DNA of 64,000 nucleotides from an uncultured delta proteobacterium (GCA_963771465.1 CAVYTU010000008.1:64001-128000), one strand, 5' to 3'. Positions 19,107 to 24,713 are shown, counted from the stretch's first letter. Made by a program: numbers and translations. Notes: generated from the sequence alone by a model not told the origin.

Positions 19107-19131
19107 GGAACTTTCCCTGCTCGAATCCGTT
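19107..19131 (+). promoter_or_regulatory. Putative ECF sigma factor promoter (GGAAC-N16-CGTT)
   Basis: GGAACTTTCCCTGCTCGAATCCGTT, about 110 nt upstream of the thioredoxin-msrPQ operon. Confidence 0.45.
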
Positions 19132-19240
19132 TTGATCTCCAGAAGTTGACGAGCGCAGCTTATACACCTGCCGGCACATCTAAATAGCGTGCAACGGCAC
19201 GCCCGGAGCAGCGCCGGAGATCGCTTGAAAGGAGCACGGA

Positions 19241-19762
19241 ATGGTTCGATTCGCAGCGTTTTCATTAGGGCTGGTTCTCGCTTTGTCAGTCTGGGTCGCC
19301 TGGCCACGAGCCGGCGCGGCGATCACCAACGGCGCAGTGGCACCGGACGTTGCCGGCGATCATTGGATTAATAGCAAGGCTCTGACCCTTGGCGAACTTA
19401 AAGGTCGCGTCGTGCTAGTGGAATTTTGGACCTACGGCTGAATCAACTGCCGCAATATTGTCCCGCAGTTGCGGGGTTGGCACGACAAGTATAAAACCAC
19501 CGGCTTGACCATCGTCGGCGTCCATTCGCCCGAGTTCCCGTGGGAGAAACCATTCGATAAAGTGAAAGAAGCGAGCGGCCGATTGGGCATAAAGTTCCCG
19601 GTCGTGCAGGACAACAATTTTGCTATATGGAAACGCTTTGGCGTGTGGGCCTGGCCGACAATCGTCGTGATCGACAAGAAAGGCGTTATCCGTTACAACC
19701 ACGTCGGTGAAGGCGCTTACGACAAGACTGAGTCGGTGATCAAACTACTACTTGCCCAATAG
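19241..19762 (+). CDS. Secreted thioredoxin-fold (DipZ/TlpA-like redoxin) selenoprotein with a UxxC active site
   Basis: The two listed ORFs 19241-19441 and 19469-19762 are in the same frame and separated only by TGA (19439-19441): VEFWTYG-U-INCRN corresponds to the DipZ FWTYSCINC motif; GVHSPEF and WAWPT downstream; signal peptide; GGAG RBS. Confidence 0.85.
19453..19479 (+). promoter_or_regulatory. Candidate bacterial SECIS element
   Basis: Starts 11 nt after UGA: CAAT/GTTG lower stem, CCCGC/GCGGG upper stem, apical loop AGTT 25 nt from UGA. Confidence 0.55.
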
Positions 19763-19819
19763 AGTTGACAGGCAATCTTTTCTTAGCGACCATGGTGGAT
19801 GAAATGAGGAACGACTAGC

Positions 19820-20785
19820 ATGCTGATCAAAAAACCGGAAGATATCAAAGCCGTCGAAATCACTTCTAAAGAACTCTATTTAAACCGCCGGCAATTCATC
19901 GCCTCGGCGCTCGGCGCCGGCGCGGCAATCGCTGGACTTGACTTAGTTGCAACGCCGGACGCGCACGCGCTTGATAAGTTGCCCAATGTGAAAAAAGGCC
20001 CGGCGGCCTATCACACGACGGAGAAGCTCAACTCGCTCAAAGACATCACCAGTTATAACAATTTCTACGAGCTCGGTGTCGACAAAGGTGATCCAGCCGA
20101 GAACGCAAAATATCTGATCACCAAACCTTGGAGTGTAGCCGTCGAAGGCGAGGTGAAAAAAGCCAAAACCTTCGCCGTCGAAGACATCATGAAGCTGGCG
20201 CCGCTCGAGGAGCGCGTTTACCGCATGCGCTGTGTCGAAGCTTGGTCGATGGTGATTCCCTGGATCGGTTTTCCGCTCAGCGCGTTGATCAAGCAAGTCG
20301 AGCCGACCAATAATGCGAAGTATATTCAGTTCGTCACTCTCGTCGATCCGAAACGCATGCCGGGGCAAAAACCGAGCGTCTTCGGTGGGTCCATCGAGTG
20401 GCCTTACGTCGAGGGACTACGCATGGACGAAGCGATGCATCCCCTGACGATATTATCAGTCGGTTTATATGGCGAAATCCTGCCGGCGCAAAACGGCGCG
20501 CCGCTGCGCTTAGTCGTGCCCTGGAAGTACGGCTTCAAAAGCATCAAGTCGATCGTTAAAGTACGCTTCATCGAGAAAGAACCACCGACTTCGTGGAACA
20601 AGATGCAGCCCCAGGAATACGGCTTCTATTCGAATGTAAATCCCGAAGTCGACCACCCGCGCTGGACGCAAGCCACCGAACGGCGCATCGGCGAGTTCCT
20701 GCGCCGAAAGACTTTGCCGTTCAACGGCTACGGCGAACACGTGGCGAGTATGTACAAAGGTATGGACCTGAAGAAATTCTACTGA
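19820..20785 (+). CDS. msrP: Protein-methionine-sulfoxide reductase catalytic molybdo-subunit
   Basis: Tat motif [50 protein letters not shown]. Confidence 0.95.
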
Positions 20786-20788
20786 ACA

Positions 20789-20896
20789 AATGGAGAATGG
20801 ATAATGGAAAATTGATAATGTCGGACCGGAATAACACCTGATAATTAGGCTTCGCCGCTCCGATAATTCTCCATTATCCATTTTCAATTATCCATT
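20789..20896. repeat. Heptamer-periodic inverted repeat (AATGGAG/AATGGAT ... ATCCATT), copy 1
   Basis: Tandem 7-mers on the left arm and their complements on the right arm, between msrP and msrQ. Confidence 0.75.
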
Positions 20897-22196: not shown

Positions 22197-22273
22197 GTTA
22201 GACACTCTTTTTAATCCCCAACTTTTCCATGCGCGAACGCAGGGTGCTCGGGTTGATAACGGGAGGAATCTCC

Positions 22274-22888
22274 ATGAAAGCCAAAAAACTCCTAGCGCCA
22301 ACCTGTTTATCGGCGCTGATCTATGTTTCCGGTTGCGGCGGCGTCGGAACCGACGTCCTCGCCGGGCGCAATGCATTGCAAACCGGCCGTCCCAAAGACG
22401 CGGTCGGTTACTTGACGCGCGCGGCAGAGATAGACCCAAGCTACAAGACGCCGTTTCGAATTCCCCAGGGCGTGCTCGGCTTTCTCGGCCGCGCCTACTA
22501 TGAAACCGGCAACGACGCCGAAGCGCGCAAGACGTTGGAACGAGCCGTGAGCCTCGACAAAGACGATCCCCTCGCCCGCGTTTACCTCGGTCTCACTTTG
22601 CTACGCAGCGGTGAGCGGGCGCGCGGCCGACAGGAAGTCGAGGGCGGCCTTAAAGCGATCGACGACACGCTGGAATACATCAACATGGACAGAGTGACAG
22701 GTTTTTACTGGGATCCTGGAGGGCAAATTCGCAGCGCCACCAAAAAAACTCTCGCCGCCAACCTGGACGACGCTCAACTGGCAGTAGCAGCAGAACGAAT
22801 CGCCATCGAGTTCGACGAAGAAATCGACAAAGCCCGACGTGACGAGGGACGTAGCCGTGGCGGTTCGGATAGCGGCGGCGCAAATTAG
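22274..22888 (+). CDS. TPR-containing lipoprotein (paralog of the upstream gene)
   Basis: GGAGG RBS; lipobox VSGC; FLGRAYY...ARKTLERAV; shared YWD.GG motif. Confidence 0.75.
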   Translation: MKAKKLLAPTCLSALIYVSGCGGVGTDVLAGRNALQTGRPKDAVGYLTRAAEIDPSYKTPFRIPQGVLGFLGRAYYETGNDAEARKTLERAVSLDKDDPLARVYLGLTLLRSGERARGRQEVEGGLKAIDDTLEYINMDRVTGFYWDPGGQIRSATKKTLAANLDDAQLAVAAERIAIEFDEEIDKARRDEGRSRGGSDSGGAN

Positions 22889-23039
22889 CTTTTCCACCGA
22901 TGGCGGCTACGCATCTTATGGCAAAGCGCAGGCATCTAAGAGCCGATACCCGGAAACTAGCGATCAATCGTCATCGAAACGAAACACAAGGGTAACCATG
23001 CTGGATTATAAATCTGCTCATGAAGTCGAGGACACCAGC

Positions 23040-24000
23040 ATGATTAACCGTAAGCCGAACGCGACAGCCGACACTCGGAACCGAGAGTGGGCGGTTATCC
23101 TTGCCGGGGGCGACGGCACCCGGCTGAAATCTCTCACTCGGCATATCTCCGGTGATGAGCGTCCCAAACAGTTCTGTTCAGTCCTCAGCCACCAGACGTT
23201 ATTGCAGGAAACCCAACTGAGATCCGGGTTAGAACTGGCGCGGGAACGAACCCTTTATGTCGTCAATCGCACCCACGAACATTATTACGCGCCGACACTC
23301 GGCGACGAGGCCGCCGACAACTTAGTGGCGCAGCCAAGCAATCGCGGTACCGCGCCGGCGATTCTCTACAGTCTACTGCGCATCGCCGCACGCGATTCGA
23401 AAGCGGTCGTGGCATTTTTTCCGTCCGATCATTACATCTCTGATAACCGAAAATTCATGGCGCATATTCGCACCGCCCTCGACACCGCGCGCCAACGGCG
23501 CGACCTCGTCGTGCTCCTCGGTTTGCAACCGGAAAGTCCCGAGGTCGAATACGGTTGGATCGAACCGGCGCAGCCGATTCAGTGATCAGGGCACAGTATT
23601 CGGCGTGCGCCGCTTCTGGGAAAAACCGAACAGGATGCTCGCGCAAGTGCTGCAACTACGCGGTTGCCTATGGAACAGTTTTGTCATGGTCGCCTCGGTG
23701 CGGGCGCTGCTGGAAATCATCGAGAGCGCCATCCCCGAGCTCTACCGCTCATTTGCTTGCCTGACCGCGCTGTTTGGCACTTCGGCCGAAGTGAAAGCCA
23801 TCGATCAGCTCTACGGTCGTCTCCAAGAAGTAAATTTTTCCCATCAAGTGCTCGCGCTCAAACCCGAAAGCCTCGCCGTGCTCAAGGTCACCGGCGTGCG
23901 CTGGAACGATCTCGGCGAACCGAAGCGAGTCATGGCATCCCTCGACATGGCCGGCCTTCGGCCCGGTTGGGCCAAAGCCGGCGTGCCCCAGTTCGCCTAG
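23040..24000 (+). pseudogene. Mannose-1-phosphate guanylyltransferase-like sugar-phosphate nucleotidyltransferase, frameshifted near 23580
   Basis: ILAGGDGTRL...PKQF, NRGTAPAI, FPSDH, EYGWIEP in one frame; VRRFWEKP, LWNSFV, WNDLG in the +1 frame. Confidence 0.8.
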
Positions 24001-24149
24001 CCGCCACAGCTCCAGAACTCCGCGGTCAGCATCCCGCGATCAGCGCATGGCCGATGGGTAGTGGTTCTGATCGCTAATTTGTCGTTTCGCCAATTCGCTG
24101 ATTCCATCCATTCGTCAAATCCTGGATCACAAGCGGAACAGTTTGATAT

Positions 24150-24713
24150 TCATGGCTTGCCGCTCTTCGGAATAAACTTTAGCGCCACACCATTATTGCA
24201 CCAGCGTTTGCCGGTCGGCTGCGGCCCGTCGTTGAAGACATGGCCGTGATGGCCGCCGCAGCGGGCGCAGTGGTATTCGTTGCGCGGTAAAATTAATTTA
24301 AAGTCCGTGCTGATGCCAAAGGCGCCAGGAATCGCCGCGAAGAAACTCGGCCAGCCTGTGCCGCTTTCGTATTTCATCTCCGACGTAAAAACCGGCAGGC
24401 CGCAACCGGCGCAAGTAAAAACCCCCTGCCGCTTTTCATTATTGAGGGGGCTTGAACCGGGCGGCTCCGTGCCTTCCTCGCGGAGAACATGAAACTGATT
24501 CGCGTCCAAGCGCTTGCGCCATTCTTCCTTCGATAGTTTAAGTTGTTCAGTCGGCACAGGCACTTTTACTCCGTCAGGCAGCAGCACCTTCCAGTTTTTC
24601 TGCAACGCCTCCACTTCCTTCATCGACGCCGGCTCCGCGGCCGATAGCAGTCCCTTTAACGCCGACCAAATCCCGCCCGCCAACAATCCCTCTAATAATC
24701 CACGTCTCGTCAT
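24150..24713 (-). CDS. msrB: Peptide-methionine (R)-S-oxide reductase with Tat-like signal peptide
   Basis: GTEPP, CAGC/CARC Zn motifs, KYESGTGWPSF, HHGHVFNDGP, RWCNNG; N-terminal TRRGLL. Confidence 0.93.
   Translation of the reverse strand: MTRRGLLEGLLAGGIWSALKGLLSAAEPASMKEVEALQKNWKVLLPDGVKVPVPTEQLKLSKEEWRKRLDANQFHVLREEGTEPPGSSPLNNEKRQGVFTCAGCGLPVFTSEMKYESGTGWPSFFAAIPGAFGISTDFKLILPRNEYHCARCGGHHGHVFNDGPQPTGKRWCNNGVALKFIPKSGKP

Follow-up and report, generated by a model that had tools for sequence, protein, structure and literature searches.

Gene content and layout of the locus

The DNA analysed here is a stretch of 64,000 nucleotides from an uncultured delta proteobacterium (GCA_963771465.1, CAVYTU010000008.1:64001-128000), referred to below as the window. 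In it, a gene for a predicted selenocysteine (Sec)-containing redoxin is located immediately upstream of msrP and msrQ, whose products form the MsrPQ system that reduces methionine sulfoxide in periplasmic proteins. A preliminary description of the window had placed these genes in a single six-part repair locus consisting of an extracytoplasmic function (ECF) promoter, the redoxin, msrP, msrQ, tetratricopeptide repeat (TPR) lipoproteins and an msrB with a twin-arginine leader. The features of the redoxin-msrPQ unit are listed below, with positions counted from the first letter of the window.

19107..19131, + strand: distal ECF-like promoter, GGAAC-N16-CGTT (consensus of relatives GGGAACTTT...CGTTT)
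19155..19183, + strand: proximal, second ECF-like promoter of the GCAACC-N16-CATCTAA type, conserved in Binatia-type upstream regions
19241..19762, + strand: predicted exported Sec redoxin (173 aa) with a UxxC site (U67), a thioredoxin fold like that of DipZ and an N-terminal signal/anchor helix
19439..19441, + strand: in-frame TGA, predicted Sec codon, aligned with the catalytic Cys of DipZ and of Cys-coded relatives
19462..19475, + strand: hairpin resembling a Sec insertion sequence (SECIS), with a stem of 5 bp and a G-containing apical loop of 4 nt, located 25 nt past the UGA
19765..19793, + strand: sigma70-like element TTGACA-N17-GACCAT with a weak -10, a possible internal promoter of msrPQ
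19820..20785, + strand: msrP, molybdopterin methionine-sulfoxide reductase with twin-arginine leader (NF003767; RRQF leader, RCVEAWS motif)
20902..21537, + strand: msrQ, haem membrane subunit (NF003831)

The open reading frame (ORF) coordinates confirmed that the redoxin stop codon precedes the msrP start (19820) by a 57-nt spacer in the same orientation. Both reductase genes scored well above their NCBIfam cut-offs (msrP, 480.8 bits against 207 for NF003767; msrQ, 206.4 bits against 130 for NF003831), and msrP, with its twin-arginine leader and molybdenum-binding Cys motif, lies next to msrQ, as in MsrPQ systems. The genes and distances given earlier were correct; a ManC-like gene, a second ECF-like promoter and the internal sigma70-like element had been missed. 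No Rfam match was found within positions 18000-25500 of the window.

Relatives of the locus were taken from one genome scan with the redoxin, as the best 80 of 468 confirmed matches. Among these, 17 redoxin loci are labelled here as Binatia-type. The window itself resembles Candidatus Binatia, and a mutY-mtgA flank is common to it and its nearest relative loci.

A predicted selenocysteine codon in the redoxin gene

The redoxin ORF (19241-19762, +) contains one TGA, which, when read as Sec, gives 173 residues with the site WTYG-U-INC. By sequence criteria the redoxin is almost certainly a selenoprotein, as initially proposed. Across the 80 loci, the active-site codon is TGA in 66, TGC in 13 and TGT in 1, and the hairpin that follows tracks the TGA: its 12-nt core is identical in 64 of the 66 TGA loci compared with 2 of the 14 Cys loci, and it represents the consensus fold of 46 of 67 TGA sequences. 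Three Cys revertants (L032, L039 and L042) retain the amino acids PQL at this position with altered codons, and TTG, which encodes Leu in the hairpin, is seldom used farther downstream in these genes (34 of 394 Leu codons). The hairpin also fits the bacterial SECIS as described in the available text of PMC1088965, namely a stem-loop just 3' of the UGA with a small apical loop containing G. No compensatory changes were seen in the stem across the TGA sequences, and since the stem is nearly invariant, covariation is not demonstrable. Elsewhere in the window, 12 other UxxC/CxxU read-throughs were matched, all in non-coding frames by eye, and none of the NCBIfam selenoprotein models attained its cut-off on the redoxin.

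Several results count against a Sec reading and would suit a genuine stop codon, with the redoxin gene being a pseudogene or two fragments. No selA, selB, selC or selD gene was found in the 64-kb window, and no tRNA-Sec was detected in the window or in a tRNA scan of 60 of the 80 loci. In single-sequence folding, hairpin stability gave z values of -0.3 to -2.2 relative to shuffles and was non-significant in three of four folding windows. However, with TGA kept at the catalytic Cys position in most loci, both halves of the gene conserved and the hairpin following the TGA at the DNA level, a genuine stop is extremely unlikely. Gene callers split the gene at this codon, and 20 of the best 120 near-length database hits begin past the UGA. 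In L035 and L070, single-base frameshifts were observed just past the hairpin within runs of repeated bases, representing either errors or pseudogenes.

Fold and family of the redoxin

The top solved relatives of the redoxin were the thioredoxin domain of DipZ (E 1.5e-36; PDB 2hyx/5cyy), SOQ1 and NHLRC2. These are its best matches in sequence and fold, with WxxxCxxC and WP motifs in common. The structural model displayed a thioredoxin fold with a mean predicted local distance difference test (pLDDT) score of 90.3, a low-confidence N-terminal helix and a template modelling (TM) score of 0.80 against DipZ. DipZ carries a CcdA-like membrane domain and a C-terminal domain, both lacking in the redoxin, which consists of the thioredoxin domain only; the first Cys of DipZ is replaced by Sec, and the redoxin clade is separate from the DipZ-like rows. 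More distant matches included the Neisseria PilB domain (E ~1e-6) and Etrx (E 6e-6 to 3e-5). Export of the redoxin is predicted from its hydrophobic N-terminal leader.

UxxC redoxins are an already catalogued type of predicted selenoprotein (PMC13188914; PMC9312934). The Redoxin, AhpC-TSA and Thioredoxin_8 proteins described there share Pfam domains and the UxxC site with the window redoxin; no msrPQ context is given for them in the available text of either source, whereas the window redoxin has one.

Linkage of the redoxin with msrP and msrQ

The survey of relatives bore out the linkage proposed for the redoxin and msrPQ. The gene msrP directly follows the redoxin in all 17 Binatia-type loci, and msrQ comes next in all 15 whose contigs extend that far. 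Over the whole set, msrP was found within about 5 kb of the redoxin in 38 of the 80 loci: directly after it in 20 (the 17 Binatia-type loci and 3 from Rokubacteria), behind a histidine kinase-response regulator (HK-RR) pair in 17, and at 3 kb in one. The MsrP tree displayed the same two groups as the redoxin tree, with a 100/100 split, and redoxin and MsrP distances were correlated (Mantel rho 0.74, 35 loci). Such matching trees reflect shared descent only and are no proof of co-evolution. Judging from these sequences, the redoxin is inherited together with msrPQ in two uncultured groups, one Binatia-type and the other Rokubacteria/Methylomirabilota-type. No terminator was found between the redoxin and msrP in a generic promoter/terminator scan (6 found against 3.3 expected, and 11 against 9.3). 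Redoxin, msrP and msrQ thus very probably constitute one operon.

Three observations weigh on the other side. A YuiH-like molybdoenzyme takes the place of MsrP in 14 loci, and in 12 others a kinase is present without msrP or a YuiH-like gene within reach. In addition, transcription of msrPQ could become independent of the redoxin through the possible internal promoter: TTGACA-N17-(G/A)AxxAT occurs in the redoxin-msrP spacer with the same spacing in 10 of the 17 Binatia-type relatives. A separate basal promoter for msrPQ may therefore exist, although part of this conservation may be coding because TTGACA overlaps the redoxin stop codon. The remaining loci comprised 5 with a kinase at the contig end, 6 with nothing recognised, 1 at a contig end, 2 with a redoxin-MsrB fusion, 1 with a divergent msrB-msrA pair and 1 with a true DipZ (L080).

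Other genes were also observed near the redoxin in these relatives. In L028, L040 and L043, Bufferin-type genes (a DUF2282 precursor, an MNIO maturase and DoxX) flank the redoxin-kinase unit. In loci with a YuiH-like gene, a DsbA-like gene (L069:8222-8686, minus strand, and equivalents) was noted about 2-2.6 kb upstream on the opposite strand, which resembles the Rcas_1661 (seleno)lipoprotein family below the cut-off.

ECF-like promoters in Binatia-type loci

The GGAAC-N16-CGTT motif at 19107-19131, suggested earlier as an ECF promoter, occurs no more often than chance predicts when the window is taken by itself (one match against 2.91 expected); it is the relatives that support it. It occurs in 13 of the 16 Binatia-type loci with sufficient upstream sequence (window included), in none of 61 other loci and in 6 of 2938 background windows, and its position is conserved in the alignment of relatives. 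As the pattern had been fixed beforehand, this test is not circular, and the suggested ECF-like control of the redoxin is supported. The proximal motif, GCAACC-N16-CATCTAA, was found in 14 of 16 Binatia-type upstream regions (window included) and in none of the 61 others, a count that is partly circular since the motif was derived from the same sequences. A matrix built without the window ranked positions 19155 and 22911 joint first within it.

In relatives, the proximal motif recurs before genes located behind a cassette encoding an ECF sigma factor and a zf-HC2 anti-sigma factor. Nine of the 17 Binatia-type relatives contain an island past msrQ with a sigma-54 activator, a STAS protein, the ECF sigma factor and the zf-HC2 anti-sigma factor. 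As regards the SigR/SigH type of control named earlier, the cassette sigma factor displayed generic ECF similarity only, and it is a better fit to the proximal motif than to GGAAC-N16-CGTT; because of the recurrence of the motif behind the cassette, it is the likely reader of the proximal motif. No sigma gene was found among the window ORFs scanned. Taken together, these motifs suggest that one or two ECF sigma factors switch on redoxin-msrPQ in Binatia-type genomes, and the cassette with its GCAACC-N16-CATCTAA sites represents a candidate for an undescribed ECF regulon and its promoter motif.

The cassettes are located 2-9 kb after msrQ (L003, L004, L007, L010, L012, L013, L014, L023 and L035). 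In several of these nine loci, genes for a glucose dehydrogenase and an aquaporin lie behind the cassette, with repeated GCAACC-N16-CATCTAA sites. Upstream of the window redoxin, a 77-aa ORF (18759-18992, +) without a family match was observed; it is present upstream of the redoxin in 14 of the 17 Binatia-type loci, and small ORFs resembling it were found elsewhere behind proximal-type ECF promoters.

A two-component system in Rokubacteria-type loci

Neither ECF motif is present in the Rokubacteria-type loci. There, an OmpR-type regulator accompanies the histidine kinase after the redoxin, and a TGACA direct repeat was found upstream in 42 of 45 loci with a kinase compared with 2 of 10 without. 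One periplasmic Met is invariant in all 40 extracted kinases, with no conserved Cys. A Met switch has been proposed for the E. coli sensor YedV/HprS in the available text of bioRxiv 10.1101/2021.09.09.459708; the invariant Met recalls this switch by analogy. These features suggest that a two-component system with a Met-bearing sensor switches on redoxin-msrPQ in Rokubacteria, replacing both ECF promoters, and the same operon would then be placed under two unrelated regulatory schemes. The kinase/regulator pairs with the TGACA repeat in L016-L071 were noted as candidate oxidant-sensing two-component systems.

Possible function of the redoxin

MsrPQ receives its electrons from quinones, according to the available text of PMC8315932, and the redoxin therefore needs a job other than feeding MsrPQ. 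We favour, with moderate confidence, a model in which the three genes Sec-redoxin, msrP and msrQ make up an operon for envelope repair that is induced by stress, and the redoxin acts in parallel to MsrPQ rather than through it. In this model, the redoxin would serve as a reductant in the periplasm and receive its own electrons from a protein of the CcdA/DsbD type whose gene lies elsewhere. Its likeliest clients would be exported one-Cys MsrB and also MsrA enzymes, such as the product of the nearby msrB, as partners supplied in trans. For an MsrB without a resolving Cys, the proposed reaction is an attack of the selenol on the oxidised catalytic Cys. Whether such Msr recycling is its main job appears evenly balanced on the sequence data.

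The MsrB of the window (145.1 bits against the TIGR00357 cut-off of 113.05) contains four Zn cysteines, one catalytic Cys (C172) and GTGWP at the usual position of the resolving Cys. In two-Cys MsrB proteins, the resolving Cys occupies the position of this SGTGWP motif. The same SGTGWP is present in 76 of 83 MsrB domains fused to homologues of the redoxin. These redoxin-MsrB fusions make up 83 of the best 120 longer homologues (of 2464 found), including the top 56; for 13 of the 120, a DsbD membrane domain is listed. At the level of the family, sequence supports a connection of this type of redoxin with MsrB. In L072, the genes msrB and msrA, both with leaders, are arranged head to head with a Sec redoxin gene, and a Met-rich ORF follows the redoxin. 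MrpX-like ORFs, Met/Lys/Asp-rich and with a signal peptide, abut the redoxin in 3 of the 80 loci (after it in L072, before it in L037 and L059); one of them scored E 1e-5 with TIGR02953, below the cut-off, and two were unmatched. The regeneration of one-Cys Msr enzymes by unusual thioredoxins or other thiols is described in the available text of PMC6162775. Two acidobacterial membrane-anchored redoxin-MsrB fusions were also observed (L077:9713-10726 and L079:4914-5957), combining a PilB-like logic with a DipZ-like sequence.

Several findings speak against Msr recycling. The MsrB fusions use Cys, come for the most part from acidobacteria where a name is given, and form their own clade well apart from the Sec clade; fusions occur only in that clade, and the window redoxin is fused to neither msrA nor msrB, with msrB convergent to it. 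A three-way tree, from which 5 of 18 DipZ-like rows without the motif pattern were dropped, cannot rank MsrB fusions against DipZ-like proteins as nearer to the Sec clade. Near Sec-clade redoxins, msrB was found in only 3 of 73 loci (L001, L015 and L072), and no conserved copy of either ECF-like promoter was found at msrB. The msrB gene does lie on the minus strand, 2.6 kb past msrQ, with a leader starting MTRRGLL as described before, and the RR pair is present in 119 of 121 sequences with a conserved N-terminal extension; its hydrophobic core, however, is weak (best 13-residue Kyte-Doolittle mean 1.3, against 1.9-2.3 for the other four leaders). Finally, the search for a ccdA/dsbD electron donor, named earlier as a check, found none in the window or the 80 loci at limited sensitivity, except for the true DipZ of L080.

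The reading that ranks next, which we regard as unlikely, gives the redoxin no special tie to MsrA/B and instead casts it as a general protector of periplasmic thiols or a scavenger of oxidants, induced along with MsrPQ. It would rescue oxidised cysteines or consume HOCl or peroxide, in the operon position of HiuH in E. coli or MrpX in Azospira and Brucella. Under this reading it is understandable that the redoxin stays the first gene while its partner changes (msrPQ, YuiH-like or kinase only, as counted above) and that msrB is seldom linked. In the tree, the MsrB fusions are no closer than the DipZ-like proteins, and accessory detoxification genes are known in msrPQ operons from the available published descriptions. 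On the other side, MsrB fusions greatly predominate among the fused homologues with the best scores, and the Sec form is found beside exported msrA/msrB in L072. We accordingly place thiol protection behind Msr recycling in trans.

It is improbable that the redoxin acts on MsrPQ directly, whether as an alternative source of electrons, in maturation or in shielding the molybdenum centre, or that it provides redox input to the kinase in Rokubacteria. Among the neighbours of msrP and of the kinase, the redoxin is the most constant one (17 of 17 Binatia-type loci for msrP, 46 of 56 non-Binatia Sec-clade loci for the kinase), and it precedes another enzyme of the sulfite-oxidase family in 14 loci. 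However, no fusion of the redoxin to MsrP or MsrQ was found among the best 120 longer homologues, and the use of quinones by MsrPQ, noted above, argues against a donor role. The YuiH-like partners (3 examined) lack a leader and would therefore sit in another compartment, and the kinase sensor domain is without a conserved Cys. A co-fold of the Cys-coded L005 redoxin with its own MsrP scored 0.00, which speaks neither way.

Beyond the parallel model of Msr recycling in trans, a more tentative and jointly rather doubtful proposal would make the Sec-redoxin clade the selenium arm of a two-track envelope repair system in Binatia- and Rokubacteria-type soil bacteria. The selenol would regenerate MsrB proteins lacking a resolving Cys and, in the boldest form, act on MsrP. 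The redoxin would always be the first gene of an inducible msrPQ unit, controlled by ECF promoters in one group and by an independently acquired Met-sensing two-component system in the other.

The downstream genes as a variable island

Past msrQ, the window contains the following features.

21576..22196, + strand: TPR putative lipoprotein 1, lipobox-like Cys, variable neighbour
22274..22888, + strand: TPR putative lipoprotein 2, lipobox-like Cys, variable neighbour
22911..22939, + strand: second proximal-type ECF-like promoter, before the ManC-like gene, joint top window score
22998..24000, + strand: gene for a ManC-like sugar-phosphate nucleotidyltransferase, interrupted by a frameshift near 23577-23595; L015 has an intact homologue
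24150..24713, - strand: msrB, Zn-binding, one catalytic Cys (C172), twin-arginine-like leader, convergent and loosely linked (TIGR00357)

In the Binatia-type relatives, msrB was found near msrPQ in 2 of 17 (L001 and L015), TPR homologues downstream in 4 of 17 (and in 0 of the 63 other loci), and both together in 1 of 17. Because of this sparse linkage, the downstream genes are best read as a variable island and not as part of the repair unit; the TPR and ManC-like genes, like the location of msrB, are, on the comparative sequence evidence, incidental to that island. The ManC-like gene is either a pseudogene or the product of an assembly error, as an intact 324-aa homologue in L015 aligns with it in two frames at 73-75% identity.

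The six-part locus initially described, in which promoter, redoxin, msrP, msrQ, TPR lipoproteins and the exported msrB form one selected and co-regulated module, is consequently very improbable and was not borne out by the survey. All parts are adjacent in the window, and the convergent arrangement of msrB and msrQ recurs in L001, which is the closest relative, and in L015. In L003 and L010, TPR or manC genes occur at 9 kb, near the 10-kb survey limit, so msrB may sometimes fall just out of range. However, among the 12 Binatia-type relatives with at least 6 kb of downstream sequence, msrB was found in 1 and TPR genes in 4, and in L005 the TPR gene runs straight into asnS, with no msrB between msrQ and asnS. 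In the window itself, msrB is on the other strand, a sugar nucleotidyltransferase gene intervenes, and neither redoxin promoter has a conserved copy there. A GAAACG-N16-CAACTAA look-alike upstream of msrB was rejected, being outside the top 10 window scores and without a counterpart in L001 or L015.

Relation to known systems

For Cys versions, the claim that this arrangement had not been described is largely incorrect; for the selenium form, no publication was found. In Azospira suillum, a SigF-controlled yedZY-mrpX-Dsui_0159 operon (yedYZ being msrPQ) includes a thioredoxin-like gene (Melnyk 2015, PMC4436054). The survey in that paper reports yedY near thioredoxins in 5 cases, kinases in 3 and msrA/msrB in 3, and a Gluconacetobacter locus combines yedY, msrA, msrB, thioredoxin and sigF. 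Azospira and the window are thus alike in the ECF-type control of an msrPQ operon with a thioredoxin-like gene, and MrpX has its counterpart in the MrpX-like ORFs beside the redoxin in the three loci named above. The Azospira thioredoxin is, however, listed as DUF1223 rather than DipZ-like, with no Sec reported in the available text. The ECF16 (SigF/EcfF/BcrS) promoter, GTAAC-N17-CGAA, has a -10 box that mismatches both window motifs (CGTT and CATCTAA).

The EcfF/OsrA system of Bradyrhizobium (Masloboeva 2012, PMC3420878) resembles the window in having an ECF regulon with a membrane-anchored periplasmic thioredoxin, a periplasmic Msr and a yedY homologue, and the co-regulated thioredoxin was proposed there as donor to the periplasmic Msr. 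Its regulon genes are scattered, it has a DsbD-core partner gene, bll1027, of which there is none beside the window redoxin, and no Sec is reported in the text available. In E. coli, hprRS-hiuH-msrP-msrQ places an accessory periplasmic gene first, followed by msrPQ, under two-component control (PMC9805139, available text), which parallels the Rokubacteria form redoxin-HK-RR-msrPQ; the first gene there is the transthyretin-like hiuH and not a redoxin, and the window form uses ECF-like promoters.

Exported thioredoxins that recycle exported Msr enzymes are established in pneumococcal CcdA-Etrx-MsrAB (PMC3914529, available text). As predicted here from sequence and model, the window redoxin shares with PilB and Etrx an exported thioredoxin fold and a CxxC-type site; it differs in being stand-alone, Sec-containing and msrPQ-linked, with no ccdA beside it and only distant similarity. 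The N-terminal domain of Neisseria PilB is an exported TlpA-like thioredoxin that recycles exported Msr.

No published case of a Sec redoxin tied to msrPQ, or of a DipZ-type partner of Msr, was found in the searched literature, which left most subscription journals outside. The new elements are therefore the selenium form, its lineages and the regulator swap, and the Cys-based elements and most pairings have published precedents; no new pathway is established. The locus provides a functional context for a predicted selenoprotein type in common uncultured soil lineages. The near twins L003 and L005 form a natural Sec/Cys pair, which would allow a direct test of selenium in the regeneration of periplasmic one-Cys MsrB.

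Other features of the window

Imperfect 24-25-nt inverted repeats resembling repetitive extragenic palindromic (REP) elements were observed at 20789-20896, in the msrP/msrQ gap, and at 19006-19083, upstream of the distal promoter. Further along the window, an ORF with a Tle1-like phospholipase domain (PF09994; 32952-34049, minus strand) adjoins a pair of GMC oxidoreductase genes.

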